A DNA stretch of 64,000 bases from Cyanidioschyzon merolae (taxonomy: Eukaryota). The stretch lies in assembly GCA_000091205.1 (NCBI GenBank), contig AP006494.2. One strand, 5' to 3'. Under the pieces are notes generated by a model, which did no database searches, was not told the origin of the DNA, and saw only the letters and a program-made list of their open reading frames with translations. This document shows, in pieces, positions 2,879 through 52,924 of the stretch. The stretch's first letter is position 1. Every line of letters begins with the position of its first letter. Made by a program: the position numbers and the translations under genes.

Positions 2879-3286
2879 CTGGATCTCGAATCTTTGGAGT
2901 TGGCTCGGTAAGCCTAATAATGGCACCCGCACGCTCGAAGGCTTAGTACTCTTGTTCATAGCAATCTCTGCTTTTATCTTAAATTAGGTCTCTCGGAGCG
3001 GCCCGCGAGATTAAGCTCCCAGAATCGACCTGAAGGAACGATTCCCTTTCTTCATGCCTTAAACTACCTGAATATGAACGAGATTTCCCGAAAATATGCA
3101 CGCTACTGGCGAGCTAACGACGGTGTGAACCACATCACATTTGCTGTACGCTCTTCTGTTTCCAAAGCGGTGGGCATTGGGTTTGATTGAAAAGTGCTAC
3201 AAAATGAAGAAATACATAACAATAAGTTATGGATTTTTTGAATTCATCTAGTATTTATCTTCGATCCTAGCCTAAAACAAACGTGA

Positions 3287-3928: not shown

Positions 3929-4364
3929 CGTCCCGGGGTCTGGCAACTTTTACGCTGTCGTGGAAGAGAAAAACTCTAGTCTTATATCCGCTTGCTGTTG
4001 CAGTGAGCAGGAGGATCGGGCTCGTGAGAGGAGTTCCAACGGTCCTCGTCACTATGAAAGCGACCTTTTCCAATGGAATGGAGTGACTGAAACGACGGAA
4101 ACGATCTTCGCTCACAGCGTTGGGCGCGGAGGCTGCGAGTGCCAGTACATTTTGGCAGCATCGAAGGCACACTTGTCGACGAGATCGACGCGTTAGCGGC
4201 CAGTTGTTTGCTAAGTTACAGGCAAAGCGAACAACGTTTGGAATCGAATCTAGATTTTCGAAAACCCCCAGCCTCTTTTCAAAAAAGTTTCTTGTTTTAC
4301 TGTTTACATCAGAATCGAAGCAAGTCATACCCATTACCAGGTTTTGCAAAGGCATGACGCTCAC
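3843..4364 (-). CDS. Hypothetical ORF (173 aa), doubtful
   Basis: GTG start overlapping the stop of the DP gene. 86-nt overlap with the CSL4 3' end. No recognisable motifs. Confidence 0.15.
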   Translation of the reverse strand: MSVMPLQNLVMGMTCFDSDVNSKTRNFFEKRLGVFENLDSIPNVVRFACNLANNWPLTRRSRRQVCLRCCQNVLALAASAPNAVSEDRFRRFSHSIPLEKVAFIVTRTVGTPLTSPILLLTATASGYKTRVFLFHDSVKVARPRDVIAELKKASMPREGNSASALDLRARPLQ

Positions 4365-5548: not shown

Positions 5549-6935
5549 GGCGTTCCTGAGCGAGGCACTGTAACCTCTACAGGTAACGATTACGGATGCT
5601 GCGTCTCGTTGGCTACGGTGTCTGAAAAGCGATAAAGACACCTTTTCAAGGGGCGGATGCTTCCGCAACCGTACCTTGGCGACAGCAGTCCAATAAGAAG
5701 CTGCGCTGGCTGGTCTTGCGGCACTGCAAACTACCCTCAGAGCACATTGGCAGGTAGAGCGCGCCCCTGCGACGTCCGAGAATCACCCGCCTCTGTACGC
5801 GCGCGAAAACAGAGCGCTGCGACCGGAGTTGCGATTTCGATGCCGCGCAGCGCCTCGACGGCAACGCGGGTTATCAGCGTAATCGTGCGCGGCAACTGTT
5901 CATGTGCGTAGTTCAACGCGATTCCTCATCGCTCAGGCGGGTGCGTCTACGCGGAGCGGTGTTTATTCGTTGCTCGATCATGCAGGGGAGTGCGAGCGGT
6001 GGCTTCCGAGTACGAGATGGAGCACAATTACGTTTTGCTTCTTGTGTGGGGCCCTTCGCACGGAAGATTTTGAAAGTTCACCGTTGAGAGCGGCCTACCG
6101 TTCGGATGTTGCCCTCAGAGTGTAGATGGTCATCGCTAGCGATAAATGTGGATGCTCCTCGCGTGTAGAGCTTGCTGGCATGGACGGAAACCTGAGTGTT
6201 TATCACGGTTTTCACATTCACGCTTCAACCTTGACTGTCGATCTTAGGGCGGGATTTGAAGAGATTGCAGCGCCGATTCGCGATAAGCGCTCAAGCGTCG
6301 TGTAATCCAATCTACCAAATAATTTGCAGCATTTCGGGACTGATGTTTCCTGCCAGGACACCTTGACAGGTGCTCGTCTAGAAACGTGCATGATGATTGG
6401 CTTCATTGCTGTTGCCACTGAGCAAACTTCGGGATAATAGTGCCCTCATGGTTTCTCTTCTGAGTCCAAACCGAAAAGGGATCCCGAAGCGGACAGCGTG
6501 CATCAATTGGTGCACTTTTTGGTTAGTAACGGATCTGGCGCGGGGCGTGGAACTCGAAACTTTCTGGCGCTCGTCTGGTTAACCACAATCGCAGCCGATC
6601 CCGATATGGGTACAGCAAAGCAGCTCAGTCTCCGCGAGGCGATCAAAGCAGGATGCGTCCGGCATAGCCGCACGTGCCCTCCTTTGTCTCGATGCCCAGA
6701 GAATCCTCGAATAAATCTATCCTTTTTTCTTAGGCAAATAATTACCTGGCGTCGTTGGAATGCACACGAGCTTGGATTGCAGCGGCAGTCGTTTTCCCAA
6801 TTTTCTTGCGAACCGCGCATCCTGGAATATGGTTACATGTACCGATTTCGCCTCAGGAAGAAAGCCGTCCGCTTTGACGAAATCATGCTCGTTATTTTGA
6901 CCACAATGGCGGCTTTGAAGGGCCTCACTTTTTCC

Positions 6936-8326
6936 GATTAACGCACCACACTTTGTCAGACAAGATTTTTACGGGTCCATCGATTTTCCTCCAGCGCCCG
7001 CTTCCGAGTTGGGGTTTCTTCGCACAATCATCGATACCTGCTGTTGGCGGCTTGTTCCGAGACTGCCTACCTTTCCCTTATCTTGTCTCTGGCTATGAGT
7101 ACACCGGTCTCTCGTGCCTCATCAACTCCCAGATCTGATGTCGATGGATGCTGATGGCAGTGCAAGTCCCGATTACACCGCACGGGGATATTGTCGACGC
7201 ATTTCGTGCATTGGCAAATGTTGCAATGTATGCTTCATTTGCCATATTCACCTTCTTTGTATACAGCCCCTGTGCTCGCTTCGTAACGGCAACACAAGGC
7301 TATGCGTAGATGAGACCTTATCCTCACCACAACTCATCCTCCAAGCGCCACCGCGTGGCGCGTGAGCACTTGATTCAGCGCTCGATACATGCCCCCGAAG
7401 GGCACAGAGTCCTCCCTGGATGCTCTTCGCGACATCTGCAACCAGTGCTGCACCGCACGACGACGGGTTTCTTCTAGGCGACAAACTCGGCGAGTACGCT
7501 GTCCAACGGGCGCGTAGGCGCACATTGTCCCATTCGATAGCGGATTTGTGGAGAGCGATGTCGTCTAGTGTGAAACAAGGACCAGAAGAAATATCGACGC
7601 TGGAGATCGAGTCCAGAATATTCTCTCCATCCGCGCTCCCTTCGTGCAATAGAGTTGCATAGTACCCATTGGAAGCGATCATTAGATAGCAAAGGCGAGT
7701 CCGAGACCATTTTGGATGCAAAGCGAAGCGACGGGAGCCTCCAGGAGCATATACCATGAAAGGTATCAGGCTGTGTGGAATCCCGCGACATCGATGGACA
7801 CAAGGCAACATGGTTTGTCTTTCTGACGGACATTATCATCGGATATGACACAATCTGTGAACTTTTGGCATGAGCTCCTGATCAAGTCGTCAAGGAACCT
7901 GGTCGAGTACTTATCATCGTCAATGCAGCGGAGCGCGTCCCTGTGCCCGCGAGCTGCCTTGAAACAGTCAGACCGAAAGCTTGGGGAACTCATGATTTGG
8001 ATATGCTTGATGCAGGAAAAGCGGAGGAATGGAGGCCTTTGGATAAGAACTGCATAATGGTATCGGTTATTTTACTGACGTGGGGTTGAGGGCGTCGCGA
8101 ATCATCGTGGTTTCGACGAATTAACGGATTCTAGCGACAGGAAGGGACTGCTCCGAAAAGATGACCAGTATCGTAAACCAAGGAAAGAGTGCGTAAGTCC
8201 GCATTGATGTGCTTCGAAGGTCAAGGCTGTTCATCTAGAAAAAGCTGGGGAAAGAACGGAAATACAGGAGGAGAGCGAAGAATTCCGTGTTCTGTTTTGA
8301 TCTGACATGAGAAGGAAGCGTAGCTT
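6936..8326 (-). mobile_element. IR1-L: ~1.39-kb copy of a degenerate DDE_3 (IS630/Tc1-like) element, inverted partner of 11824..13225
   Basis: Reverse-complement identity with 11824..13225 (coordinate sums 20145-20149, a few small indels). Identical ORFs 7845..8057(+)/12088..12300(-) and 7114..7365(+)/12784..13035(-). Outer junction near 6936 (taacgcaccacactttgtcagacaag). Inner end includes atctgacatg at 8300-8309. Confidence 0.75.
7248..7993 (-). pseudogene. DDE_3 transposase pseudogene (frameshifted relative to the right-arm copy)
   Basis: ORFs 7766..7993 and 7248..7811 together parallel 12152..12901 but are split by a frameshift, with small indels (HSLIPFMVYAPGG vs HNSLIPFMGYAPGG). Confidence 0.7.
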
Positions 8327-10376
8327 GGTTTTTGATTTGCGCGCTCATTTCTCTCCCCAGTTTCCTGCAGCTACACGTTTGGGAACAAACATGGCTCACC
8401 CTGTGAGTCTTCACTGGTTAAGACGGACGGATGACGTAGCACTTCACCGGGACGCTATCAATTCCGTGGTTTCAGTGCAATCGAGTGAATCGCAGCCTCA
8501 AGACGAGCTGTTGCTGTCAGAGAGTCGCGCTGGTGCTACGGCTTCGACGTTGGGAACGTCATCAAAGCCTTCGTTAGCTGAAGTTTCAACCGGAATTAAG
8601 CCGCAAACCAATATACAACGTGACTCACTTCGCTTACCTGAAACAGAGCGAGAGTATGAAAAGAGATCGCGTTCGAGCCAGTGGGCGAATGGAGACCTGA
8701 GTTTTCCCGAGAGAGAATGCCCGACTGTGGAAGTGAAACCTCGTTTCAGGCGAAGAATCATTTTTGGTGAGAGAAGGCAGTACGCGTTCTTTCAGGATGC
8801 TTTGTTTCCAGCTCTGTCTGACGCACCAGAGACGAGAGGTGCTATGGCCGATTCGCCCTCCGCGGACACTCCAAAACCCGCCTCCCTTGAAAGCTGTTCA
8901 GAAAGGGGAAACGGAGCCGCTTTGCACAAGACGAGAGACTCGTGCGACGTCGTTCCTGCGTTTCGGGAAAGCATTTGTTTGGGAGCTGATGCGAACAGAC
9001 TGAGCGCCGTATCCGGAGACTCTCTCAAGCTCGAAGATGATTCGAACCAGAAGCATTTTTCACTGGATAGCTCCCTAGGCCCGAACTCAAGGGCTGCCTT
9101 ATCTGATGAAATTAGCTTCCCAGGGGCACGGACGCATAGCTCAGAAGCGCTGCAGTTGGAGCTGAACAAAAGCGCCGAGAATGCGGAGTGCTCAACGATC
9201 TACGTCTATCTTTACCCCGATGGTTATTCATTTTCAGAAACAGGGTACCCTAGGTTCAGTTTCGATGGAAACTCTGATCGAATACTCTTTTGCTTAGATC
9301 AGGGTGTCCTGCCCTCTAGTTTTGAATTTCGCGCTCCGAAACGGGCTGACAGCATCAATAACGTTCGTGACGCGGTCATACTGGATTATACGCGGCCGAA
9401 GCCAAAGAAATTCCACATTACTTTGAGGCCTGACTATTTGAATATATGCCTCGCAATTGCAGAAAGTCCATACGCTCGGGAACTAAGACAAGCAGATAGA
9501 GTGCTGCAGTTGGAAGCAGAGCTACTTAAGCTTTTGCACGTTTTGGATGACTTGGAGCCTCGACTTGACCATCAAACGCTGTCGTCTCATACAGAATCCG
9601 CGCAGGTTCTTAACTTTGCTAGAACTGCAAGGCAGCATGTGGAGGTTACATTCACTAGATCACTTCCGCTTTTGCGGCTGTTTCTGACGAAACGTATGAA
9701 CAGAAATCGTCGATCCAGAGGAAAAGCAAACATCGATCTTGCATCACAGATGCTGCTTCTCGTGGCTGGCAACGAAAACCTTAACCGTTATCGTCGTACG
9801 CGAATGCGCAGCGTCACCGGTCTTCCAAGGCAGACTTCTTCCCTAGAGCTGAAGACGCCGGCAGACATTGCGGGCGCCCAACCTCTTCGAAGACCTAGTT
9901 TCTCAAACGTCATCGGGCGTTTGCTTCGGCAGCTTCGTTTCGTGTTGCATCGAGCGAGTGCAACCACGATCCAGCCAAAGTCCAACGAAGCCCCAGCTGT
10001 GACGAATGCGGACGAACCCTCTGGACAGTTGGATACCCCTACTGCGTCTGATCGAAACGCCCGACCTGCATCGAGATCGGGCGAACCAAGAATTGTATGT
10101 CTACTCGATATCATCGTCCGACCGCAACGCGGATGCGAATGTGTCATCCGCAGAGGTCAGGAAAAGAATCGAGATTTGGACATTCTACGCATCCCCGTTG
10201 GATCGGAAAGAAACGCTCACATTTTTGCGAACCAGTTTCGGCGCCTCATGCGTGGGGAAGGTTTCGTATGCGAGCAGGACTTGACGCTTCCGAGCGAGAA
10301 CAGGGTCACAGGGGAAGATAACGCTTCGGAGACGCCAGCGGCGGACGCTAGTGCTTTGCGGTTAACGAACGAGTAA
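8307..10376 (+). CDS. Hypothetical Ser-rich low-complexity protein (689 aa), orphan
   Basis: 2.07-kb uninterrupted ORF with ATG start, statistically unlikely by chance at this GC content. No recognisable domain. Its ATG (8307-8309) lies inside the inner end of IR1-L. Confidence 0.5.
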   Translation: MRRKRSLVFDLRAHFSPQFPAATRLGTNMAHPVSLHWLRRTDDVALHRDAINSVVSVQSSESQPQDELLLSESRAGATASTLGTSSKPSLAEVSTGIKPQTNIQRDSLRLPETEREYEKRSRSSQWANGDLSFPERECPTVEVKPRFRRRIIFGERRQYAFFQDALFPALSDAPETRGAMADSPSADTPKPASLESCSERGNGAALHKTRDSCDVVPAFRESICLGADANRLSAVSGDSLKLEDDSNQKHFSLDSSLGPNSRAALSDEISFPGARTHSSEALQLELNKSAENAECSTIYVYLYPDGYSFSETGYPRFSFDGNSDRILFCLDQGVLPSSFEFRAPKRADSINNVRDAVILDYTRPKPKKFHITLRPDYLNICLAIAESPYARELRQADRVLQLEAELLKLLHVLDDLEPRLDHQTLSSHTESAQVLNFARTARQHVEVTFTRSLPLLRLFLTKRMNRNRRSRGKANIDLASQMLLLVAGNENLNRYRRTRMRSVTGLPRQTSSLELKTPADIAGAQPLRRPSFSNVIGRLLRQLRFVLHRASATTIQPKSNEAPAVTNADEPSGQLDTPTASDRNARPASRSGEPRIVCLLDIIVRPQRGCECVIRRGQEKNRDLDILRIPVGSERNAHIFANQFRRLMRGEGFVCEQDLTLPSENRVTGEDNASETPAADASALRLTNE

Positions 10377-10554: not shown

Positions 10555-11709
10555 CTAAGCGCTTCGAACGGGCAATTTCCATGACGCGGCGATTTCATCG
10601 AGCGCAGGCTGAATTTCTTGATACTGAAACTTAAGACCGCTTTGCAACAGACGCTTTGGGAGCACGCGTTGGCCCTGGAGCACAAGTTCCGCCGCTTCGC
10701 CAAGAATCAGTTGAAGTGTGAAACTGGGTACCGGTAGCCAGTTCGGGCGTTTGAGCGCTCTTGCAAGTGAATCGCAAAACTTTTGAAACTGAACTGGGGT
10801 TGGCGCCGTGACGTTGTACACACCTTGAAAATCGGGTGATTCCAGCTCGTGCATGATAATGTTCACCAGATCTTGAATGTGTATCCACGATATCCACTGG
10901 CGTCCAGATCCAATCGTTCCACCTATGAACAAGTTAAAGAGCGGAAGCATTCGGCTCAAAGCCCCCCCATCCGGGCCGAGTACTATGCCAAATCGATTGA
11001 TGACTGTCCGGATTCCCGCATCTTGAGCAGCTGCTTCCCACTTCTTTGCGACTGATGCTAAAAAGTCCGTCCCTATCGAAGGCGAATCCTCGTCGAACGT
11101 TTCTACTTCAGATGTACCGTAGTAGCCAACAGCAGATGTGGAGATGAGAACCTTTGGTTTCCTATCAGCATGATGAACAGCTCGGACGAGCTGAAGGGTC
11201 CCGTTCACGCGGCTCTCCAGAATGCGCCTCTTGCGCTCTGCCGTCCACCTACCTTCTGAAATGGGTTCGCCAGCTAGATTAATTATAGCATCACTTCCAG
11301 CCACTGCCTCCACGACCTCCTTTGCCGGCGCATCGGCAGCAGTCGCTTCAAAGTATATTGCTTCCACCTTATAGTTAAAGGTTTTGCGGGCTTTCTCAGT
11401 ATCACGCGCCAAAAGCGTCACCGCCTTCCCCGAACCGAGAAGTTTGCGCACAAGCGCCCGGCCAACAAAGCCTGAGCCGCCACTCACAAGCACGGTTTTC
11501 GCCCTAGTATCGGATGCCTCAATGCGTAGACTATTTTTGAAAGCCCGTCGAGCACAGCGATTTGACGATTGAAGACAGTTTCTAGGCTCTTGTTTGCACC
11601 AGTCACCTACGAAGCTCGAGACACGAGGACATGCTCCAGCAAAAGCAGGCGCGTGCAAAAGCGGTCGCTGCTGATTTGGCAGAGCCAACAAGCAAAAGAA
11701 AGACAACAT
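10555..11709 (-). CDS. SDR39U1: Epimerase family protein SDR39U1 (NAD-dependent epimerase plus DUF1731, YfcH-like)
   Basis: N-terminal Rossmann motif TVLVSGGSGFVGRALVRKLL. Length (~384 aa) and C-terminal region typical of the TIGR01777 family. ATG start. Confidence 0.8.
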   Translation of the reverse strand: MLSFFCLLALPNQQRPLLHAPAFAGACPRVSSFVGDWCKQEPRNCLQSSNRCARRAFKNSLRIEASDTRAKTVLVSGGSGFVGRALVRKLLGSGKAVTLLARDTEKARKTFNYKVEAIYFEATAADAPAKEVVEAVAGSDAIINLAGEPISEGRWTAERKRRILESRVNGTLQLVRAVHHADRKPKVLISTSAVGYYGTSEVETFDEDSPSIGTDFLASVAKKWEAAAQDAGIRTVINRFGIVLGPDGGALSRMLPLFNLFIGGTIGSGRQWISWIHIQDLVNIIMHELESPDFQGVYNVTAPTPVQFQKFCDSLARALKRPNWLPVPSFTLQLILGEAAELVLQGQRVLPKRLLQSGLKFQYQEIQPALDEIAASWKLPVRSA

Positions 11710-11823
11710 TCTTTATCCAGTCCAACAAATCGGACGTGGCTATGCGCTCTGTTCACACACGAAAGATAAAGTGTACACCTGTGCAGGGTTAAGAAAAATT
11801 TGACGTTTGTTCACGCGCTTCAG

Positions 11824-13225
11824 GGAAGCTACTTCCATGTCAGATCAAAACAGAACACGGAATTCTTCGCTCTCCTCCTGTATTTCCGTTCTTTCCCCAG
11901 CTTTTTCTAGATGAACAGCCTTGACCTTCGAAGCACATCAATGCGGACTTACGCACTCTTTCCTTGGTTTACGATACTGGTCATCTTTTCGGAGCAGTCC
12001 CTTCCTGTCGCTAGAATCCGTTAATTCGTCGAAACCACGATGATTCGCGACGCCCTCAACCCCACGTCAGTAAAATAACCGATACCATTATGCAGTTCTT
12101 ATCCAAAGGCCTCCATTCCTCCGCTTTTCCTGCATCAAGCATATCCAAATCATGAGTTCCCCAAGCTTTCGGTCTGACTGTTTCAAGGCAGCTCGCGGGC
12201 ACAGGGACGCGCTCCGCTGCATTGACGATGATAAGTACTCGACCAGGTTCCTTGACGACTTGATCAGGAGCTCATGCCAAAAGTTCACAGATTGTGTCAT
12301 ATCCGATGATAATGTCCGTCAGAAAGACAAACCATGTTGCCTTGTGTCCATCGATGTCGCGGGATTCCACAACAGCCTGATACCTTTCATGGGATATGCT
12401 CCTGGAGGCTCCCGTCGCTTCGCTTTGCATCCAAAATGGTCTCGGACTCGGACTTTGCTCATCTCAATGATCGCTTCCAATGGGTACTATGCAACTCTAT
12501 TGCACGAAGGGAGCGCGGATGGAGAGAATATTCTGGACTCGATCTCCAGCGTCGATATTTCTTCTGGTCCTTGTTTCACACTAGACGACATCGCTCTCCA
12601 CAAATCCGCTATCGAATGGGACAATGTGCGCCTACGCGCCCGTTGGACAGCGTACTCGCCGAGTTTGTCGCCTAGAAGAAACCCGTCGTCGTGCGGTGCA
12701 GCACTGGTTGCAGATGTCGCGAAGAGCATCCAGGGAGGACTCTGTGCCCTTCGGGGGCATGTATCGAGCGCTGAATCAAGTGCTCACGCGCCACGCGGTG
12801 GCGCTTGGAGGATGAGTTGTGGTGAGGATAAGGTCTCATCTACGCATAGCCTTGTGTTGCCGTTACGAAGCGAGCACAGGGGCTGTATACAAAGAAGGTG
12901 AATATGGCAAATGAAGCATACATTGCAACATTTGCCAATGCACGAAATGCGTCGACAATATCCCCGTGCGGTGTAATCGGGACTTGCACTGCCATCAGCA
13001 TCCATCGACATCAGATCTGGGAGTTGATGAGGCACGAGAGACCGGTGTACTCATAGCCAGAGACAAGATAAGGGAAAGGTAGGCAGTCTCGGAACAAGCC
13101 GCCAACAGCAGGTATCGATGATTGTGCGAAGAAACCCCAACTCGGAAGCGGGCGCTGGAGGAAAATCGATGGACCCGTAAAAATCTTGTCTGACAGAGTG
13201 TGGTGCGTTAATCGAGAAGAGTGAA
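11824..13225 (+). mobile_element. IR1-R: ~1.40-kb copy of a degenerate DDE_3 (IS630/Tc1-like) element, inverted partner of 6936..8326
   Basis: See IR1-L. Inner end 11824 lies 115 bp upstream of the epimerase ATG (11709, minus). Outer end near 13225. Confidence 0.75.
12152..12901 (+). pseudogene. DDE_3 (IS630/Tc1-mariner-like) transposase relic, 249-aa ORF, catalytically degenerate
   Basis: LVSIDVAGFH (DExGF-like first Asp box, Glu replaced by Val). GYAPGGSRRFALHPKWSRTR (YGWapkGerp-like). CFTLDDIALHKSAIEW (vlDNasiHKs second Asp box). WTAYSPSLSPRRNP (LPPYSPDLNPIE box with the catalytic Glu lost). N-terminal HTH region absent or disrupted. Confidence 0.7.
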
Positions 13226-13299: not shown

Positions 13300-14700
13300 A
13301 GCTACAGATCCCCGATCTCCACGCACGCTCGGTCTTGGCTCTCTTCCAATGGTTTGTAGGCGCAAATGTTCGGCGACATCGACGTCCGCCGTTTGTGGGC
13401 TCTTGGGTGCTTACTTCGCAGACAGATTTGGTTCTCCGTTACATGCTAATTATTGTTAGCACAACGAAAAACGATCTACCACATTAGGGTGCATGAGAAC
13501 GCACATGTCCAGACGCCTCCCAACCATTTTTGACAGGGTGCTTGCTATCAGTTCCAGCTGCTCCTTGTACACCTCTGGAATGGTAGGCTGACCCGCAAAG
13601 TCGGATCTTGTCAGCTCTTCAGGTCTCGTCCTCATAACCAAACATCGTCTGAAATTGTTGGCGGCGATGATGGCCCGGTTCAGGAACTCCAAGCGTTTAT
13701 TGCCACTGGTGGAACGGACTTGTGCAAGGAGTCCTCGAACTCGCGCCCTCTGTGCCATTCGCTGCTCTTTCAGCTCGCCGTGCTTTCCTATCGTCCAAGT
13801 GCTCCGCTGGCTTCTCTCGATCTCGAACTCGTGAAGTGTATAACCCATTGCATTCCTTATTTTCGAAAATGAACGCACTCGTTTATGCCGTTGGGTAGGG
13901 ACCTTCTCGGATGGATAAGGACTTATGGAAGAAAGACAAATACGCCCCGGTATCACCGTGATGAACGCGTCAGCGATTCACCCAGTAGAGCGATCGTAAA
14001 GATTAAGATAGGAGACACTGCTCGAGGAGATGAAGCATAGAGCGTACGGAGGAATGCAAAGCAGGCCAAGACCTATAGAACTGGCAAGAGCTCGAACGTA
14101 AAGGATATGGTGTAACATCACAGTTTCCAATAGAGGGAAGTCCCAAGATGTCAGGGAAGAGTCATCTATGATTCGACGAATTGGGTGCTGCTGTATGGGC
14201 CTTGTCTACGAGCGAGACTGACGCCGCAAAATATACCCACTGCAGCTAGAATAGATAATGACTTCGTTCTCATCGAGTTCGATCGTACATACAACGGGCC
14301 TGCTCCCAGAATACCCATCTGCGCTCCGACCGTTTCTCCCGAAGAGAGTCTCATGGGCTGGAAAAAGAAACCGAAATCCATGCGCATTATACGAATAGGG
14401 ACGTTCGCGGAATTCAGTAGTTGGCATATCTGTGGAGATCACCGTCATTGAAATTGGACTTTTTATGCGACTGTGTCCGAATGTTCTCAGGACCACACGA
14501 AAAGGCCTTTTGAGAAACAGAGGTGTTTGCGTTGGATACGGTCTTCGCTTTTGCCTTCTCTAAGGTGATCAACGAGCCGTTTTCTACAGTTGACCCCCAG
14601 CACGATTTGAGCACGTCGTTTTCTGGCGCAGAGCGTGTATACTTCTTTCTTACAGTGTTTGACAATCACTCGAGTCCTGCAGTGTGACTGCCCTGAAGGA
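13300..14700 (-). mobile_element. TnpB/Fanzor-like (RuvC-type OMEGA nuclease) element relic, copy A, pseudogenised
   Basis: ORF 13456..13956(-) contains RVRGLL..STSGNKRLEFLNRAIIAANNFRRCLVMRTRPEELTR, a DRDxNAAxNI-like RuvC-III motif after a degenerate zinc-ribbon region. Upstream frames (14414..14665(-), 14185..14451) parallel copies C and B. Shared nucleotide blocks ctatgattcgacgaattgggtgctgctgta (14166) and ..tacttctttcttacagtgtttgacaatcactcgagtcctg.. (14600s). Confidence 0.5.
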
Positions 14701-15094
14701 TGAATGTAGTCCTCCTTGCACTTCTCAGTAAAGAGTATATCCTATGGGCAACTCGTCAACGATCTATGCTGTACACTGCATCATGATTTCGATCATCTGC
14801 TTTACACTGGGAAAAAGCATAGATTACGCATAGCGGGGGTGAAATATATTTGATTTGAAAGACTAATAAGATCGTTGTCTGGTGCCGATTGCAATTAAAT
14901 TTGAGTAATATTTCCACCCAACACTGGGTTCGCGTGAAGGTTGCGAGAAGGGCTACAAGAGTTAAGCTCTTTCGAACTGGAGATATTCACCGTGGATCTT
15001 TCAGGTCCAAAAGGATATAAAAGAGCGCTTGAAGACATCTCTTCGTGCTTGCTATATTTGAAAGAGTCAAATATGAGAACTAGTATTTAGTTTA

Positions 15095-16822
15095 CATTCA
15101 GAGTACTAAATTCTTGAACAAGTCTACCGGCAGGTTATTTTTGTGTTTGGTTGTTTTTCCCACAGGTATTGAACAATAAGGTTGTCCGTTGGTGAGAGAA
15201 TGGCGGTGGATAGAGTTCATGCCATCGCCGCTAGCATACCGACACGGATCTTACTTGTACAAGTCAGTCATTTTACATTCAGCAGGTGCACCAGCGACCC
15301 TTGTGGCAGTGCTTGTTCTGAACATTGCGTACCCAAAATACAACGTACTACAATGTATATATTCGACAATCTTCTGATTCGCTCATTGTATCACATAGAT
15401 CCTCTGAGAAATACCATCTGCGAAGCCACATGATGTGGGGCTTTCACATCTTTCATACTAGCGGTGATAAACAGACACCGATGAACAGAAAAGTGCGCTG
15501 CGATGCACGACGATTGCGTGTTGCCAGCAGATTGTCGAATTCGCAGCGCAAGGCGAAGGCCCGCTGCAGGACTGACTGGCGTTCGTGTCAGTCGGTGATG
15601 CTCCATTTTGCAGAAACGATCAACTCGTATATATGTCCTCACATAGGGGCGACACGAAGTTCTTAAAGAGGCGACAAGCGACATTGAAGGCGGCATGAGC
15701 CCTAGCGGTGATTTCTTCTGGTGATCTCTTACAAATCGCCGAACGAAAGGACATTCCAATACCTCATCCTCCGGCGAGGCACCTCCTGGATTCCTTCACC
15801 CACATTCCTTGGTAATGCCCTTAGACAGTATTGCTTTCCCTCGCTAAACAGCGCTCAGGCAGTATGCAGCTGTATCTGTCGTTGAGCTGCCCTACTTTTC
15901 CAGAGATCGGCAGTGTCGGGAGTCGGGCCCCAGAGACGCCAAGAGGCGTACCGACCAATGAAATGACAGCGTCCGGACCCGTCACGACGCTCTGAGACTC
16001 GTGTCGAACGGAGTGGATGCTGTGTGAGATCCATTCATAGACACGTGCGCGTCCACGTGGCTCGTGGGGACGCTCCCTCGCAGATGCACTTGAGACGTCG
16101 CTGTGGTCATCAACAGCTTGGCTCTCCGGAGGCAGGAAGCGTGCATTCTCCAGCATATTCAATGAGTTAGCAACGTATCGGACCGATAACTCGCAACGCG
16201 TGGAGGTAGCGAATGGCGCTGGACGTGCACTCGCGAGCAACGGCTGCACTCATGCTCGGTCGGCGAGAGCGTGCAACCACAGCAGGAATCGATTCTTCAC
16301 GGCTCCCGTGGATGCGTTCAGAGCGACAAACACGCGTGACCAGCGCGAGTGCGCACAGTGACCGGTAGAGAAGAAGAGTGTGAAACAGAGCTGCATGCAC
16401 GTGGTGGTGTACGGTGAGCTGATTGAGCGCCGGATGGCGAGAGAATCGAGCGAGACGTGCTTGCTGTGATGCGCTTCAACAATCCAAAATGCGCTCAGGC
16501 ACGTCCTGCACCGAGACTCGAACGCCCAATCGGTATCTGGAAATGTTTCGTGCGTTCGGAGCGTCCAGCGGTTTGTGTCATACGTACATTCGAGGCAACT
16601 GTTTCATACTGAGTGTGGGGATTGTGCTGGAATGCTGGAGACTTGCGCTGAGAAAATCAGAGGCTGGCAGCAATAGGAGCGGATTCCGGCATGTAGCAGG
16701 GCAATAGTATGGTACGGTTAGGAATCCAGACAGGATGTGGCACAGCGTATATAGAGAGGAACCTGTTTCCCATGGTAGTTGGTAGACGATGCTAGTGTTT
16801 CTCTCTTTAAGATGCTATTGAT
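15095..16822. repeat. IR2-L: 1.73-kb arm of a near-perfect inverted repeat (partner 23683..25410)
   Basis: Reverse-complement identity; coordinates sum to 40505 with no indels over all checked stretches. Four ORF-track ORFs are identical on opposite strands and a fifth differs by one residue (AAGL/AGGL). Boundaries are where similarity decays (15095/25410 outer, 16822/23683 inner). Confidence 0.85.
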
Positions 16823-17463
16823 TATAGAACAGTTTACAAAGCTTGGGTTCTGAAATTCTCACGTTGATTTGTTCATTAATTGTCTTGTCGACTCCAACGA
16901 GCTCTTCGAGTGCTGTGCTAAATGAATCGATACTTCTTCAAGACGAAACATAGCATAGTGCTTTCAAGATGCGAGGTCTAGTACACTATTCATGTACTTC
17001 TGCATACAATGGAACTCCAAGACCGTGGGCACTTTTGGAGGTATCTGATTTCATTTTCGAAGTACCCCTGGCGGCGAGGGTTGGTGTGATCCGATTCAAT
17101 ACCCGTTCTAAAACGTCATTCAGGAGAAAGTCTCGCGAGAGTATTTCAGGTGTTTGATCGGCTAGTTGCTCATGGGTGTTATTGGGTATGCAGCTGTCCC
17201 AGTGAAATCGTCTGTGAGCTCTCGAAACAACTAAAGAAGCGGAGTACTTCGTAGAGTCCCATGACGAAAAGCATGCCTTGTCAAGCTGTGTCCGATGCTT
17301 CCCTTCTTCTTTGCTCGGTAACCGGTGCTTTATACACAAGAAGTTCATGTTTTCTAATTCAGTCAACGATGCCCATTAAAAACCAGGGAAGCATACTGAA
17401 AACTAGCGCATTCTAGCATGGATAAACAATTATTGTTTGGAGCGAAACGACTTGAGAAAAAGT

Positions 17464-22780: not shown

Positions 22781-23682
22781 CTGCTACAACGAGCGTTCCT
22801 CTGGTGTGCGACACCGGCAGGATTTACATCGGGCGCAGAGCCTCTCAACAGCGTGAGGCGGTTTTATGTCTCAAATGCCGGTGCGAGCCGTTCAAAGCAA
22901 ACATTTTGCATTGAGGAATACTACACTGCCAGCATCTTGTTCATAATAGATTCATGACACCGAGGAGGTTTCGTAGAGAATACGTGATAAGAGTCTGAGC
23001 ACATTCCTGAGGAGTTTGCGCTACATCGGTGTGCCGTATGGAGCATTTTATGGACGGAAAAGTATGAGGGCACGAAACTTCAGAACCTCGAATCAAACTG
23101 CAACATATCTACAAACTGTCAAATAGGACGTCCACTTGCCTTGTCTCTATTCTTCTACAGGTAACAGGGACTGATGCAATGAATTTTTAGTGGCGTATTG
23201 GAATCCGGGCCGAATATCCAAAGAGGCGCTGGATGCTCGATTTCCAATCTGTAGCCGCGCATCCGGGCAAGGTTGCTCGGAAAACCGGTCTATTTCGGCA
23301 GCAGTCCGCAGTTCGCGACCTCAGACATTGCGCGCGGACTACACACTAGAGCAGAGCATGCGGCTGGCCGCCCTGCATCCTGATGCAACCACAGACGCAG
23401 TAGGTAGCCTCGACAACAATAGACCGAAGCGTTGCGCATCAAGGCACTTTTGGTGGTTGCTCGCGGACGAAAAATTTTATCCCAGTTTTTCCACTTAAGA
23501 TCGTATGAACACGAGATTCCCAACCAACATGCCTAATAACAACAAGAGATAGAGCAAATCTATCACAGAATTTGAATTATGAAGGTCTTCATTCGATGTG
23601 AAGCTTTTACAAGCGTTATAAACACCTGCGGATTCGAACGCATATACTGTTGCTATCAAAAGCGTCTGATACATATCCTACA

Positions 23683-25410
23683 CTCAATAGCATCTTAAAG
23701 AGAGAAACACTAGCATCGTCTACCAACTACCATGGGAAACAGGTTCCTCTCTATATACGCTGTGCCACATCCTGTCTGGATTCCTAACCGTACCATACTA
23801 TTGCCCTGCTACATGCCGGAATCCGCTCCTATTGCTGCCAGCCTCTGATTTTCTCAGCGCAAGTCTCCAGCATTCCAGCACAATCCCCACACTCAGTATG
23901 AAACAGTTGCCTCGAATGTACGTATGACACAAACCGCTGGACGCTCCGAACGCACGAAACATTTCCAGATACCGATTGGGCGTTCGAGTCTCGGTGCAGG
24001 ACGTGCCTGAGCGCATTTTGGATTGTTGAAGCGCATCACAGCAAGCACGTCTCGCTCGATTCTCTCGCCATCCGGCGCTCAATCAGCTCACCGTACACCA
24101 CCACGTGCATGCAGCTCTGTTTCACACTCTTCTTCTCTACCGGTCACTGTGCGCACTCGCGCTGGTCACGCGTGTTTGTCGCTCTGAACGCATCCACGGG
24201 AGCCGTGAAGAATCGATTCCTGCTGTGGTTGCACGCTCTCGCCGACCGAGCATGAGTGCAGCCGTTGCTCGCGAGTGCACGTCCAGCGCCATTCGCTACC
24301 TCCACGCGTTGCGAGTTATCGGTCCGATACGTTGCTAACTCATTGAATATGCTGGAGAATGCACGCTTCCTGCCTCCGGAGAGCCAAGCTGTTGATGACC
24401 ACAGCGACGTCTCAAGTGCATCTGCGAGGGAGCGTCCCCACGAGCCACGTGGACGCGCACGTGTCTATGAATGGATCTCACACAGCATCCACTCCGTTCG
24501 ACACGAGTCTCAGAGCGTCGTGACGGGTCCGGACGCTGTCATTTCATTGGTCGGTACGCCTCTTGGCGTCTCTGGGGCCCGACTCCCGACACTGCCGATC
24601 TCTGGAAAAGTAGGGCAGCTCAACGACAGATACAGCTGCATACTGCCTGAGCGCTGTTTAGCGAGGGAAAGCAATACTGTCTAAGGGCATTACCAAGGAA
24701 TGTGGGTGAAGGAATCCAGGAGGTGCCTCGCCGGAGGATGAGGTATTGGAATGTCCTTTCGTTCGGCGATTTGTAAGAGATCACCAGAAGAAATCACCGC
24801 TAGGGCTCATGCCGCCTTCAATGTCGCTTGTCGCCTCTTTAAGAACTTCGTGTCGCCCCTATGTGAGGACATATATACGAGTTGATCGTTTCTGCAAAAT
24901 GGAGCATCACCGACTGACACGAACGCCAGTCAGTCCTGCAGGGGGCCTTCGCCTTGCGCTACGAATTCGACAATCTGCTGGCAACACGCAATCGTCGTGC
25001 ATCGCAGCGCACTTTTCTGTTCATCGGTGTCTGTTTATCACCGCTAGTATGAAAGATGTGAAAGCCCCACATCATGTGGCTTCGCAGATGGTATTTCTCA
25101 GAGGATCTATGTGATACAATGAGCGAATCAGAAGATTGTCGAATATATACATTGTAGTACGTTGTATTTTGGGTACGCAATGTTCAGAACAAGCACTGCC
25201 ACAAGGGTCGCTGGTGCACCTGCTGAATGTAAAATGACTGACTTGTACAAGTAAGATCCGTGTCGGTATGCTAGCGGCGATGGCATGAACTCTATCCACC
25301 GCCATTCTCTCACCAACGGACAACCTTATTGTTCAATACCTGTGGGAAAAACAACCAAACACAAAAATAACCTGCCGGTAGACTTGTTCAAGAATTTAGT
25401 ACTCTGAGTA
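23683..25410. repeat. IR2-R: 1.73-kb arm of a near-perfect inverted repeat (partner 15095..16822)
   Basis: See IR2-L. Outer end is 52 bp upstream of the HIG1 ATG (25462). Confidence 0.85.
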
Positions 25411-25461
25411 TAACGCTGAGCACCTCCCTAACTATACTGGGAGCGAGCTGTTTTTCGAGAC

Positions 25462-27143: not shown

Positions 27144-27479
27144 TCGATATTTGAGTCACTATACAGTCCAAGAAGAGAGATATAACGAACGGTGTTTGGA
27201 GAAATCAGCCGACCACACCGTGTAAGGCGACACCACGATCGAATTTGCTATCTATATATATTCAGTGGTTCAACCGTTTCCCGGTCTTGCGTGTCAATTT
27301 TCCGAAATTGTTTAGATGTAGTCTCGACATTCGATGTGCGACAACATTTGCATATGTGATTATACGCATTTTTCGAGCTCTCGGCGTTGTTTTCGTTGTG
27401 GCTCCTTCGTCTCTTTGCAGATGGTAACTTTACGTCACCAGAATAAAAATGAGTCGTGATGTGTTCGAACAAGAGTTCG

Positions 27480-28260
27480 TAAAACAATATATATCATGAA
27501 CCGAGTCGAACGCACACTGCATCACTCTTCGCTTTTTTCATGTACAGCAATCTCAAATCACACATTCTTCAAGTATTAGGTCGTTCTGTTTGAGGCCAAC
27601 TGGTATGTGCAGTGGTTCGCGCTGCCAGATCCACTACTGAAAAAACTTGACGTCGCCCCTTGACACGCTCCTCACGCGCTCATGCCAGGAGTTTTACTGA
27701 ATTTGTCACATTAAACAATCGATTCTGTTCGCAATGCAAATCCGCCTCTCTATTTGGTCGTCGACGAAACCGGATTCCCCATCAGGTTGATAGGTCTGAC
27801 GGGATATGCTCCCGGAGGCTCTCATCCGTTCCGCTTGCATGGAATAGAGCCTCAGACTCGCTCTTCAATCATCGCGAGGATCGCTTCCAGAGGAGCGTGC
27901 GCCACTGCTTTCCACGAAGAGAGCTTAGACAGATCGAATTTTCTCGAATTGTTTTGCAACCTGGATATTCCTTCTGTTCCATGTTTCATCATGGACGACA
28001 TTGCGTTCCACAAATCCTCGATCGACTGGTACAGTGTGCACATGCGCATGCTGCTGATAGAGTACTCGTCGATGTCATTGTATGCAAGAAGCTCTTGATC
28101 ATAGTGTACTGCGCCGTGCTTAGATACGAAGGAGCGTATTCGAAGAAGCCTTCTATACCCGTCAAGCGTATGCGCCGAGCGATGAAGCACGTGTTGATCC
28201 ACCATAGTGCTGTGCTCGGAGGAAGAGAGGCGGTGCATGTATGATTACGCCTGCCAACAG
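27480..28260 (+). mobile_element. Diverged DDE_3 (IS630/Tc1-like) transposase relic, copy 4
   Basis: ORF 27754..28098 reads MVVDETGFPIRL (classic DExGF), GYAPGGSHPFRLHGIEPQTR, CFIMDDIAFHKSSIDW. Aligns with the IR1 copy at about 50-60% aa identity. Confidence 0.6.
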
Positions 28261-29212
28261 CCGAGTGTCACCGTTGCGAAAGACGCGTAGAAGCACCATA
28301 CAGGGAAGATGAAATCGGCGAGCGAAGCTTAAATTGCAACTTCCGCCTGTAAAAGAAGTGCGTCACAAAAAGACGGAGGCGCAGAAGATGAGACTCTAAC
28401 GCAGCCATCAACATACTTCGACAGCTGACAACGGTGCCGGAGGGAGAAGAGAGACTGCCATATTTGAAGACCGGGGATGAGATAGGGTAAAAGGAAGCAA
28501 TGGGAAAAAGCCTAAAAAGGATGAAGATGTTAACGCTGGGAAGAAACCTAAAGTTTAGAGTGTGCGTCCGAGTTTGCAGATCTGTTCCAGTTCATTCTGA
28601 CATGGGTGTAATGATATATAGCTATTCCGCGATAATCGACTGCTGCTCCAGCGAATGCAGCTGTAGGACTCCTGCAATCGTTGCGGCATCTGCAGATTCC
28701 TTACGCTCAGTGCATCTTTAAAATTTCGTCCCCTGTACTCGACGTGTCCGCGCATGGCTCGCTCTTGTAACCAAAAGACGCGCTACAGGGGCCGAGTCAC
28801 AAGCCTCTGCAGAGTTGCTCCAAGCAAAGGTCGAGTCTGCGTACAAAGCGCACTACATCTGCGCGAGAAGACGCACCTACTTGGTGCCCAGATAGAGCGT
28901 TTCTTCCAACGGATGAAAGGCGCTCACAATCCTGAATCTCGAAAAGCGCGGCAGATATTAATCCAGTTGCCCAGCTTCGAAATTTGCCAAGCTTTATTGG
29001 TCCTCGTCGTGATGGCAAGAGCTCGCGGAATAGAGACAGCCCGATGAAAATAGACTGACTCTTCGTGCATTGTGATGCACCCTCTAGTGAACTTGTGCAC
29101 CGGGGCAGCAACCCGAGCCCGAGCCCGAACTCCTGCAGCACTAGTCCCGCAGCATCAATGCAAGGATGAAGCGCTGAACTAGCCAAATCCCATCAGAGAA
29201 TGGACGCTACCA

Positions 29213-40487: not shown

Positions 40488-40779
40488 GAAAATACGGGTT
40501 TTAGCGGTGCCCTCGTGGGTGCCCCGTTTGAACTAGAACAATCGATCTTTTTGATACAATCGTATACAGGGGTCTTACAATTTTTCAACTCGATCCTGTT
40601 TCACCTCCGTAGTGTTTTGCAGCAGGAGATCGAAATCTCTGTGCAATGTACCCTATAGGTCTTATACGAATCGCTTGTAGGATATATGCTTTACCATATG
40701 GTGCAAGGAGGCTTGGATTCCTCCAGCGGCTCAGTCATACCACAGTACTCTGATGCTCGAGGAAAACTGAAAGTAGCAA

Positions 40780-42060
40780 GTATATGCGCTCTGTGCGAAC
40801 TCCGATATTCTCAAAGACTGCTTGCGATCAACGGCACGGAAACAACCCGCTGATCACCTTAAGGAATGCAAGTATGATGACAGTAGCCGCCCTAGGTGTC
40901 TATGTTTCTCAACAGCATGTTCGTGTAGTCTGTAAAACACTGGGACAGAATCACAAAAAGTCTTGCTAAACGCACTGCCATCTTCCACCGGAATCGCAAC
41001 GACAGTGTTCCTGGAACGTCGCTATCCGTTTAAAGCGTAGGGATTTCGGTTTTGGTTTTACAGTCGACGAGACTTTTTTCGGGCGAAATGGACAGTACAT
41101 ATTTGAGTATTCGCGGAGAAGCGAGCCCGTTGTATACCCGACGGAACCCGAAGAGAACTCGGATATCATTATCTGTTCTAACTGCAGTGCATATACTTGG
41201 CGGCCTCAGTCCCGCCCTTAGACAAGGCTCAAATAATAGCACGCAATACGCCGAATCATAGAAGACTCTTCCCTGACATCTTGCGACGTTATTGTATTGG
41301 AAAACGTGGCATTGCGCCATTCCACTTGCGTTCGAGCTTTTGCAGAATCTATCGGGGTGGAGCTGTTTTTCATTCCGCCATTTACCCCGTGGCTCATCTC
41401 CATCGGAGGAGTGTTTTCTATCGTGAAACGGAATGACCGTTTCGCTGGGTGGATCGCTGAAGTGTTCAGCACACGGTAACACCGCGGCTATTTGTCTTTC
41501 TTCCACAAGTCCTTTTCCCTCCGGAAAGGTCTTCACGCCAGGACATCAACAAGTGCATTCATTCGAAGAAGTAAAAAATCCAAGAGAAAGCTATGGACAT
41601 GGAAGGCGAGGATCCTGGAAGCCGTGTGTCGCCGGCTTCGACCAAAAACGAAAAAATCCTCTCCTCGCCGACCATTGAGCGAAGAAGAGCAAATAACGAA
41701 GATGGAAAAGGGAGATATGCGAGAAATGGTGTTTGCCCAGCGGGACGATGACGAGGCTGTAGGCACACAAAGGGCATGAGTTTGAGGAGTCCTCGCAAAG
41801 ATGCGTTCAACCAGCGGCTAGAACCGCATGGAGTTCATGAACCGAGACTCGAAAGCTGCTACGAATATCAGGAGATATGCGGTGCTGAAGACGAGACCCG
41901 CGGGGCTGACAAGAGCGAGCCAACTTTCTGGGACAGCCTCTCAGACTCGAAGTGTGCAAGGAAAAGCTGAAGCCGATAGCAGGGACCCGGTCAAAGAAGG
42001 CCGGAACGCGTCTGTGAGTAAATATATACATTTATCCTCATTGTTCTTGGGACATTTTTG
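40780..42060 (+). mobile_element. TnpB/Fanzor-like element relic, copy B (inverted relative to copies A and C)
   Basis: 41828..42061(+) reads EFMNRDSKAATNIRRYAVLKTRPAGLTR, the RuvC-III D-x-NAA-x-NI motif. 41433..41678(+) ICLSSTSPFPSGKVFTPGHQQVHSFEEVKNP parallels copy A ICLSSISPYPSEKVPTQRHKRVRSFSKIRN. 41030..41536(-) EPCLRAGLRPPSICTAVRTDNDIRVLF parallels copy A GPCLRARLTPQNIPTAARIDNDFVLIEF. 41533..41766(-) RILAFHVHSFLLDFLLLRMNAL parallels copy C RVLEFHIHSFPLHFFLLQMNAI. Confidence 0.5.
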
Positions 42061-47067: not shown

Positions 47068-47699
47068 TCCTGTTTATTCGTGCTCGTGCGTCCGAAAGCA
47101 TACGCCAGAGCGCCCTCGGCGGTCATCGACTGGGTCGGAAACATCGTGCCCCATTTGTGGGTTTTGTTGCATTCGTTTTCGCACTTTTTGAGCGTCGTGC
47201 CGAAGCTACTCTGAAGACTGTCCCGCGATGCAGTCTTGCTTTGCACGCCAAGGCACACCGGATTCCGGCATCCAGCGGTTGCTGGCTCGACAAATGGTGC
47301 TAGCTAGTGCTTTTTCCGAACAAATTTTCGATCGGGGGCTTCTGCACCATCTCGTTTTGTAATGCGCGTCCGTCACCATGATTTGCAAAGGCATATCGTT
47401 TGGGATGCTGCGCTAGAAGCCCTTTTTCATCCGAGTACGAATAAACGGAACAACATGAACTACTCGCATTATTCCTACCTTGAGATACGTTTTCGACCCC
47501 TCTCGTTAAATTTACGGCCTCGATATTCGATATACAGCTGTGGCGGCTTACGGATTCAAGATGTGGGTTTACGATCCTAGGTCGTTATTACGGAACGGCT
47601 TGTTTGCCTCTTCGCCGCTGGAAACCTTGATGTCACAGGAATCGACAAGAAATAGCAACGCTCGAACAAGATTTCCTTAAATAACCGGTATCCTTATAA

Positions 47700-48260
47700 A
47701 ATCCATACTGGAAGCTTCCACTCTTCTAATTTCCTTACGTATACCATATGCAAAACGTGCATTATTCAGGATTTCGATCCTTCTGTTTCAAAGCAGCTCA
47801 TTGGTGTACGAATGCTCGCCACTGGATTGACAAAGAGAAAACTCGACGTCGATCCTCGATGCCTTGTTCACAAGCTCATGCCGAAAGCTCTCTGGACTTG
47901 TCTTGCAAAGTAATCCTTTCTACTTGAAAAATGAATCCTCCAATTTTTGCGGCATGCGACGAAACAGCGTTCTACAAGAGCATGTGGTCCTTCACAAAAA
48001 CTGCCCTCGGACGCTCTCGTCTCATCTGTTTGCGTCGAAAGCGCTCTGGGACTCGTACTTGAGTTATAGCAGCGATCGCTTCCAATGGAGAGTGCATCAC
48101 AGTTTTGTAAGTAGCGAGTGCAGACAGATGATTATATCCGAGTTGGTCTCCAGCCTTGATTTTGTCTGCGGTACTTTTTTTCATCGTGAACAGTATCGGG
48201 TAGAAAAAGCTTCTATCGAATGGGACATCGTACGCTTTTGAGTGCAGCGGATAATGCACT
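47700..48260 (+). mobile_element. Diverged DDE_3 transposase relic, copy 5 (C-terminal part)
   Basis: ORF 47864..48241 ends FHREQYRVEKASIEWDIVRF, parallel to ALHKSAIEWDNVRL / AFHKSSIDWYSV of the other copies. The antisense frame conserves HSPLEAIAAI vs HAPLEAILAMI of copy 4. Confidence 0.45.
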
Positions 48261-48957
48261 CTTGGAACGCATCGTCCAGAGGAAGTCGGTGATCAGACCT
48301 TATGCCTCTGGGCACGGAAACGGAGGAGGATATCGAGGTGAACCTTCCGTGCCGTTCAAGGGCATACATTGACCTCTGAAGCGAGTCTTGACGTGGCATG
48401 GGGAGCTCTCGGAGGAGAAGCACGTATTGCGGGCCTATTGGAACACCTGAATACAGTCAAGTGTCCCCGTTGTGAAAGGCATTCCGACGCTGTATACAAA
48501 GAAGAGGGAAATAGCAAGTGAAAAGGCAGTAACAACTTTCGTCTGTGCAGGTGAAGCGTAAACAGCAGTCGGATGCGGCGAGATCGAGACTCTGAGGCAG
48601 GTGCGAACAACCGTGGACTACTGACAATAGAGCTTCAGCAAAACAGGCGTCTAGCGCGTTCAGAGCCGAAGATATGAGAGAGGGAGTTGGGGCAGCCGCC
48701 GACAAAGCCGCCAGGGGCTGGTGTTGACAATTGTGAGAAGAGGCCCAAAGTTTGGCGTGTATGCCCGAGTAACTGGATATATTCAATCTTATTCTGCTAC
48801 GGGTGTCGTTTGGTGCATGTATTCTGAACAGCGAAATGTCATAGACGCTTCCATATGCATATGCATTCATGATTCAGTCGATTTGCCCATGACGACAGGA
48901 ACGTGTCAGTGCCCTTGCGAACGCACGCTCTGCACGAAAAGCTTCTACCTTATTCCT

Positions 48958-52640: not shown

Positions 52641-52924
52641 CATACCCCACAGGCAATTCGTCTAGAATCTGCAGAGTATATTACATAGGGATCCCGATCT
52701 GCTGCGATGCAACGCACCAGGAGTGAAACAGAATCGAGTTGACAGTCTCCAGTTCTGGGACGGGGATAACCAGCGGCTATGGTCTAAGCTGTTGCAGCTG
52801 CGACTGCGTTCCAAATACCTATAAGCTCGGAGGCCGCCCTGGAACGTGCTACTGAATGAGCGCTTTAGAGGTAAGCTGAATGATTTGTTACGAGTCTGTT
52901 CCCTGTTGCGCTCTGTAGCGCCTC

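Follow-up and report, generated by a model that had tools for sequence, protein, structure and literature searches.

The 64,000-nucleotide stretch analysed here (contig AP006494.2; hereafter the window) belongs to chromosome 12 of the red alga Cyanidioschyzon merolae 10D, and three of its open reading frames (ORFs) are identical to BAM80783, BAM80793 and BAM80796. It contains six copies (c1–c6) of a repeat of about 1.38 kb, which we call family A. These six loci are very probably the neutral fossils of one non-autonomous family of the IS630/Tc1-mariner superfamily, a deletion derivative of an element that carried both a transposase and a Fanzor gene, amplified in one burst. Compared with an earlier note on this DNA, a sixth copy, a single age, a family that would never have been autonomous, the remnant of a Fanzor gene and a cousin of full length, its terminal inverted repeats (TIRs) homologous to those of family A, are new.

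The earlier note had recognized five decayed copies of one family. The repeats are genuine and well in excess of chance similarity, but the count was one short. A tblastn search with the copy-4 peptide matched the other loci at E-values from 1e-5 to 1e-22, including the overlooked one at about 56.1–56.4 kb on the minus strand. The use of copy 3 in blastn and tblastx recovered the same six places with DNA identities of 64–70%, and a DNA profile (nhmmer) matched these six places in the window and no others, always with E ≤ 4e-210. The intervals reported earlier fell on the correct loci, but the real copies are longer, at about 1.37 kb each except for c1, which is cut by the window start; 27480–28260 is only the middle of c4, the focal copy. 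The six copies occupy 7636 bp, or 11.9% of the window. Their positions and those of the c4 features, the latter obtained by consensus-to-window mapping and translation (with hhalign and per-copy translations for the Fanzor/TnpB-derived part), are as follows.

1–782 (−): c1, truncated within the element, at its second aspartate box, by the start of the window; left TIR at 757–782
6949–8313 (−): c2, one arm of an inverted pair; near-identity to c3 over 6925–8314; frameshifts relative to c3 that are specific to 10D
11832–13200 (+): c3, the other arm; near-identity to c2 over 11832–13224; TIRs 11832–11857 and 13176–13200; TA at 11830–11831
27236–28608 (+): c4, left TIR mostly deleted; right TIR 28583–28608; nhmmer match 27218–28681
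47428–48805 (+): c5, TIRs 47428–47454 and 48780–48805
55585–56953 (−): c6, TIRs 56928–56953 and 55585–55610
27314–28020 (+): c4 transposase-derived part, from the ORF start region
27484–27632 (+): c4 second helix-turn-helix (HTH2)
27763–27777 (+): c4 first aspartate box, DETGF
27802–27825 (+): c4 GYAPGGS
27991–28020 (+): c4 second aspartate box, MDDIAFHKS
28041–28558 (+): c4 Fanzor/TnpB-derived part
28095–28118 (+): c4 AYGxG region
28230–28259 (+): c4 RuvC-II region
28266–28277 and 28350–28361 (+): c4 zinc-ribbon CxxC pairs
28386–28415 (+): c4 RuvC-III, DSNAAINILR

A majority consensus of 1381 nt was built from 13 paralogs, namely the six copies in the window and seven from hot-spring metagenomes. 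The metagenome contigs that are 99–99.9% identical to the window represent the same species, and the seven further paralogs come from elsewhere in such genomes. The extent of the family was gauged from the 64-kb window, the metagenome loci and protein clusters. All 13 paralogs align end to end and share one architecture. The consensus begins and ends with 26-bp TIRs that match at 23 of 26 positions (CACCCGTGTCAGATTAAAATGGAACA), and these repeats are recognizable in individual copies. TA is found at nine of the 22 scorable element ends, as compared with a dinucleotide background of 3.6% (p = 3e-8). The flank statistics, together with a metagenome copy (L030) and the full-length relative (L032) described below, indicate that family A most likely duplicated a TA target site upon insertion. 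An apparent homology of about 40 nt past the right TIR of c3, c4 and c5 disappeared once more copies were aligned.

In frame 1, the consensus has a run of 261 codons without a stop, which reads from MYSLDIRSAAIRAYGF through DETAF and GYAPGGSR to MDNIAFHKSS. This ORF scored 41.4 bits against Pfam DDE_3 (E = 1.6e-10; threshold 28.6). Single copies reached only about 23 bits with E-values near 5e-5, as exemplified by the 114-residue ORF of c4 (27754–28098; E = 5.2e-5), which reads VVDETGF...GYAPGGS...MDDIAFHKS and retains the canonical first aspartate box noticed earlier in this copy. Against NCBIfam IS630 (NF033545), the consensus gave E = 8e-17 and 61.6 bits, where the equivalog cut-off is 100. 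The first 130 consensus residues are colinear with intact relatives and with this model, the alignment to which starts at model position 20 and ends at consensus residue 236 (…FHKSS), or position 238 of 299. The matches to HTH_Tnp_Tc3_2 (E = 4e-4 to 5e-3) and HTH_33 (E = 4e-3 to 4e-2) both fell below the Pfam thresholds; in the profile check proposed in the earlier note, DDE_3 was thus above its threshold and the helix-turn-helix matches were weak. When a profile of the window fragments was run against 1.84 billion proteins, 301 matches were retrieved, among them intact proteins of 300–340 residues (DDE_3 E = 1e-26 to 1e-29). The closest of the intact relatives are P0107 and P0153; with 142 and 127 bits they exceed the NCBIfam IS630 cut-off, and both have DD35E spacing. 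These results, along with the TIRs and TA flanks, support the earlier assignment of family A to the IS630/Tc1-mariner superfamily (Pfam DDE_3).

The catalytic triad of the consensus is incomplete. D1 (DETAF) and D2 (MDNIAFHK) are present, and neither the consensus nor any of the 13 copies contains the PPYSPxxNPIE region with the third catalytic residue. Family A would accordingly be classed as a non-autonomous derivative and not as an autonomous member; as judged from the consensus, the ancestral sequence already lacked the third catalytic residue and its copies appear never to have been autonomous. No intact Cyanidioschyzon-type member was found in protein database searches, including the profile search of 1.84 billion proteins. 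Word-indexed protein searches with the copy-3 ORF or the consensus Fanzor tail returned only the cluster of the query itself or one short relic, and such a search with an 11-row alignment gave 14 relic ORFs, all of them short, with no complete Fanzor among them. The earlier statement that no copy retains an intact ORF holds insofar as none encodes a whole transposase, but c3 does have an ORF of 249 codons (12152–12901). This ORF switches between ancestral frames and is a chance read-through and no transposase.

The 3′ third of every copy (about 520 nt) has a different affiliation. A second frame of the consensus is open from nt 808 to 1326 and reads LARAADSVLAEGIVQKKPVIVAYGTGRGNGGGHRGEPSVPVKGMYRAMKQ...VVDIREHLTTVKCHRCEGH...FRLCMKCVDNSRKRRNRDLNAAINILRLL. 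The frame-0 reading from nt 808 scored 33.2 bits against Pfam Cas12f1-like_TNB (PF07282; threshold 26.3) and contains a zinc ribbon followed by RuvC-III (CHRC...CMKC...NRDLNAAINILR) with the motif RDxNAAxNI. NCBIfam guided_TnpB matches this tail with E = 2.7e-4 at model positions 329–388 of 389, which is its extreme C-terminus. The tail was also aligned by hhalign to the Fanzor1 C-termini of CMe-1 and PUl-1, the protein sequences of which were taken from the supplement of Bao & Jurka 2013; the resulting probabilities were 92–95% with E = 6e-7 to 7e-8, and a direct match to CMe-1 gave E = 2e-4. The homology to Fanzor starts at consensus nt 808–853 and comprises the last ~170 Fanzor residues. 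The RuvC-I aspartate and the WED/REC N-terminal half are not in family A. The tail is thus the remnant of a Fanzor gene and not a complete one. At the 3′ end of the consensus, the terminal 241 nt form a more stable fold than do shuffled sequences (z = −2.4 vs −0.05 for an internal control), which hints weakly at, and would be compatible with, a former omega-RNA region; an Rfam scan of the window gave no match.

The junction between the two coding remnants lies between consensus nt 787 and 853. The earlier note had included YSPSLSP in the shared motif series. This box lies at or beyond the end of the transposase homology, with its YSP at consensus nt 830–838 and a spacing from the second aspartate box that is too short by four residues, and it is probably not the third catalytic box. 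Another candidate, PEEARD..., was rejected as the NPIE helix of the transposase because this reading is a frame artefact, the Fanzor frame being continuous across the 13 copies.

An extant element in which both genes are intact was found in a metagenome. The family profile retrieved a transposase (P0171), and 31 nt further on the same strand there is an ORF of 686 codons with a TNB domain. The locus, L032 (contig Ga0643544_0006760, nt 5246–8386, +), is a 3141-bp composite element with both ORFs open, which consists of TA, CACCCTTGTTCATCCAAAATGGAAAC, the transposase, the 686-residue Fanzor, an inverted copy of the TIR and TA. Its TIRs match those of family A at 19 of 26 positions, which is as good as their match to each other. 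The transposase consensus of family A aligns to the L032 transposase with E = 6e-29, both beginning with MYS(I/L)(E/D)xRxAA, and the tail aligns to residues 560–680 of the L032 Fanzor with E = 2e-17 and 38% identity. The spacing from TIR to gene is likewise compact in both. Because both halves of family A match L032, they correspond to two adjacent genes of one extant element type. The derivation of family A from an L032-like parent by a single out-of-frame deletion of about 1.9 kb would be the simplest reading of these alignments. The same contig contains, at nt 1–2205 of L032 on the minus strand, a second and different unit of transposase plus Fanzor; this unit encodes a DDE_3 protein of 327 residues and a Fanzor-like ORF (690-residue product) that extends past the end of the locus and matches TNB only faintly.

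Several observations weigh against this derivation. L032 is only 26–38% identical to family A at the protein level and is thus a cousin and not the parent, and its contig, with a GC content of 38%, comes from some organism or virus that is no red alga. The TA flanks are unevenly distributed, with three of 11 left ends and six of 11 right ends, and L030 is the only family-A copy with TA intact on both sides. Searches of PDB sequences with the Fanzor-like part, either as a single sequence or as a profile, gave chance matches and no Fanzor or TnpB chain. Finally, the YSP at nt 830–838 could still be a true transposase box with a shortening of four residues.

The age of the family was examined by its decay. 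Every copy is 25.2–28.2% from the consensus, both arms of the c2/c3 pair included, and the pairwise distances are 0.39–0.45 for all pairs, as in a star-like tree, except for c2/c3 (0.01). Substitutions are spread evenly over the three codon positions (0.245, 0.237 and 0.257 in the transposase part) and they are equal in the Fanzor part as well. Consistently, tblastx with copy 3 showed about equal protein similarity across all six reading frames, as anticipated in the earlier note, which had ascribed the conservation of antisense frames to mere DNA-level similarity. Because the distances to the consensus are uniform, the pairs star-like and the codon positions flat, we infer that family A went through one old burst followed by neutral decay. 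The wide age range and the two or more waves of activity put forward earlier do not agree with these distances. Two identity values given with that proposal also changed upon measurement: the inverted pair is 99.2% and not ~97% identical, and its protein identity to other copies is 33–50% (tblastn) instead of ~50–60%.

The family is not confined to the window. Among the 150 best representative matches, which stand for protein clusters at 50% identity, an identity of 42% or more to the consensus was found for 108, of which 81 span the same 30-residue segment. This suggests dozens of family-A paralogs, a count that may be inflated if several related species were sampled. One paralog in 10D is annotated as the hypothetical protein CYME_CME048C. 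At another metagenome locus (L026, nt 4001–5417), the 3′ end of a copy of the Fanzor1 element CMe-1A is joined to a family-A copy whose first aligned base is consensus position 455; the junction yields a read-through ORF of 342 codons (P0072), and no matching 5′ part of family A was found upstream.

The c2/c3 pair is the exception to the star-like pattern, with 99.2% identity over 1394 nt vs ~57% for other pairs. Together with the closeness of the identity limits to the element ends, this contrast would be expected if there had been at least two waves and c2 and c3 were products of a recent transposition, all other copies being much older. We consider this very unlikely. Each arm is 26–27% from the consensus, like the rest of the family, and the same lesions, those of a decayed copy, occur in both. 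The identity between them continues past the left TIR by 6–7 nt (AAGCTA) and past the right TIR by about 24 nt, and because it extends beyond the TIRs, c2 and c3 would not be two transposition products; neither of them has TA on both sides. In addition, the DDE triad of the consensus is incomplete, and the database searches revealed no source of transposase. Instead, the pair appears to be an inverted duplicate of an already decayed element or two arms, possibly from separate insertions, kept alike by gene conversion, with no later transposition, and the other explanation offered in the earlier note, one recent segmental copying event, fits. Site 12363 is G in both 10D arms and C in all seven metagenome arms, and site 13036 is A in both L006 (c2 position) and L007 (c3 position). 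Such lineage-specific bases common to both arms suggest gene conversion between them, although short-read assemblers may collapse the arms.

Other explanations of the six loci were weighed against the derivation from a transposase-Fanzor element. They could be independently decayed autonomous IS630/Tc1-like elements, the Fanzor-like tail being a chance resemblance or a normal transposase C-terminus. The YSP that follows the second aspartate box in several copies and the lack of a Fanzor or TnpB chain among the PDB matches speak for this view. It is nevertheless most improbable, since the IS630 alignment stops at 238 of 299 model positions, PPYSPxxNPIE occurs in none of the 13 copies nor in the consensus, and the tail is above the Pfam TNB threshold, matches Fanzor1 by hhalign and aligns to the C-terminus of the L032 Fanzor, which adjoins a related transposase. 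Domestication, by which the relics, or at least the copy-3 ORF, would be a host gene family of transposase origin under selection, finds some encouragement in the calling of that ORF as a gene in several metagenome assemblies, in the annotation of CYME_CME048C and in the fact that c2 and c3 each immediately adjoin the 5′ end of a host gene. However, substitution is equal at the three codon positions and similarity equal in six frames, the transposase frame of every copy has stops or frameshifts, and the 249-residue ORF switches ancestral frames; as the compared strains are ~99.5% identical, its retention carries no weight. Domestication is therefore extremely unlikely.

It is harder still to credit that family A is a fragment or subfamily of CMe-1A, the element first described as 253 copies of a 3.2-kb 'WSV486-like' repeat in C. 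merolae (Nozaki 2007, PMC1955436) and later recognized as an unclassified Fanzor1 element without TIRs (Bao & Jurka 2013, PMC3627910). The two share a genome, Fanzor1-type C-termini and a comparable age, with members ~20–26% from their own consensus, and they can be adjacent: a nearly full-length CMe-1A copy at 57012–60066 (+), 79–80% identical to the published consensus and containing an ORF of 224 codons (58463–59137), lies 58 bp from c6, and one metagenome ORF, the junction product noted above, runs from the 3′ end of CMe-1A into family A. Against a common identity, blastn of the published 3169-nt CMe-1A consensus with the family-A consensus gave a best match of 30 nt (E = 0.014), and the Fanzor C-termini are ~30% identical over 70 residues, CMe-1A belonging to a different Fanzor1 lineage. 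Moreover, the 26-bp TIRs and TA flanks of family A contrast with CMe-1A, which has neither TIRs nor a transposase remnant. In the window, the CMe-1A consensus matched the 57012–60066 copy and fragments of a second repeat family (family B), and nothing in family A. Family B, of about 1.45 kb and ~70% identity, is found at 13510–14801 (+), 40585–42031 (−), 51291–52742 (+) and 59808–60145 (−), the last match being the 3′ end of the CMe-1A copy itself; it has nt 2743–3083 and 869–969 of CMe-1A in common and looks like a non-autonomous relative of that element.

We propose that family A was founded from a composite element of about 3 kb with the order TIR, IS630-type transposase, Fanzor1 (TnpB-like) gene, TIR. 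Within this element, ~1.9 kb would have been lost by an out-of-frame deletion that took away the C-terminus of the transposase, third catalytic residue included, together with the N-terminal ~530 residues of Fanzor. Both 26-bp TIRs would have been retained, along with the HTH-D-D part of the transposase and some 170 residues from the Fanzor C-terminus. Because the complete DDE triad is missing, the founder would have been mobilized in trans, by a parental transposase that bound its TIRs and inserted it at TA. The family would then have amplified in one burst, after which each copy decayed neutrally to ~26% from the consensus, and the already decayed c2/c3 copy would have been duplicated in inverted orientation, or its two arms homogenized by gene conversion. 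The deletion, the mobilization in trans and the single burst are all reconstructed from the alignments.

This architecture has precedents. Mariner-type Fanzor1 transposons have been described as PUl-1, PUl-2 and PUl-4 in Pythium ultimum and PGv-1 in the Phaeocystis globosa virus; they have TIRs of 24–33 bp, a TA target duplication and a Mariner/IS630-type transposase followed by Fanzor1 on the same strand (PMC3627910). Family A resembles them in having both coding remnants in the same order, 26-bp TIRs and TA flanks, and PUl-4 is a precedent for a derivative without one of the two genes (PMC3627910). It differs in its 1.38-kb length, in the probable truncation of both genes by one internal deletion and in its many copies, the PUl families having 1–8. 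In a tblastn search of PUl-1 proteins against the family-A consensus, only the RD..NAA motif was matched (E = 0.006) and no close PUl-1 transposase was detected, this search being insensitive. With bacterial IS630 elements, family A shares the TA target and its best curated model match (NF033545); it differs in residing in a eukaryotic nucleus, in its Fanzor-type passenger and in a score below the equivalog cut-off. The C. merolae genome has been reported as nearly free of transposons, with 26 class I and eight class II elements amounting to 0.7% (PMC1955436). The eight class II elements had their best matches among bacterial transposases, at weak E-values from 0.071 to 6e-7 (Nozaki 2007, PMC1955436), similar to those of single family-A copies against IS630/DDE_3. 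Judged by these E-values, the eight are probably the best-preserved members of family A, which is much larger than eight, with six copies in 64 kb, at least 13 distinct paralogs and 81 protein clusters.

The window is gene-dense, with genes for lipoyl synthase, DP/E2F, a TIGR01777 epimerase-like protein, APC8/Cdc23, a Brr2-like helicase, PurH and an acyl-CoA ligase, and two of its ORFs begin next to the c2/c3 arms. The first ATG of a 689-codon ORF, at 8307, is inside the left TIR of c2, and the left end of c3 is 123 nt upstream of the start of the TIGR01777-family gene (11709–11832). A second inverted pair, 15092–16827 and 23678–25413 (1736 nt, at least 99.6% identical), has 6.85 kb of unique genes between its arms, among them TAP42-like and HtrA-like protease genes, and the arms contain a diverged Fanzor-like relic with 35% tblastx similarity over 125 codons to nt 2529–2903 of CMe-1A.

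Across metagenome contigs, the 3.5-kb c2–c3 segment occurs in both orientations, as seen in L004 (ENA k141_884667) and L007/L012 (JGI20133J14441_1004524) vs L005/L011, L006 and L009; L007 also has the inverted isomer of the second pair. The opposite orientations may reflect a real flip-flop inversion through the repeats or the choice of path by the assembler through identical arms. Diagnostic sites for phasing the isomers proved uninformative, as the metagenome arms are internally identical. Since both inner genes face the same arm end, an inversion would leave their upstream context unchanged. One further contig (L001, nt 2353–3436) tracks the window between 11990 and 9639, a point within the 689-codon ORF at which it passes into an unrelated context with a gene for ATP-synthase subunit c; it represents either a rearranged strain or a chimeric contig. 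Possibly, the two near-identical inverted pairs are flip-flop switches kept alike by gene conversion.

The family-A loci are ordinary neutral fossils with no indicated function. One speculative role is that family A was a 'guide-only' satellite, which kept the omega-RNA part of Fanzor and the right end and was retained or re-copied through empty-site cleavage by the parental Fanzor in trans. We regard this as unlikely, but if true it would help explain how dozens of 1.38-kb copies came to be in one of the most transposon-poor eukaryotic genomes. The class II content of C. merolae has probably been understated, likely because single copies are too decayed to score; family A by itself makes up 12% of the window and has dozens of paralogs in public data. 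For this alga, Bao & Jurka 2013 (PMC3627910) list only CMe-1. Our results indicate that C. merolae once hosted, besides the unclassified CMe-1A, a second Fanzor lineage that was associated with mariner/IS630, and they tie this lineage to a complete present-day element whose TIRs are homologous to those of family A. Family A thereby adds a red-algal data point for the association between Tc1/mariner and Fanzor, and its consensus may be of use for masking and dating.

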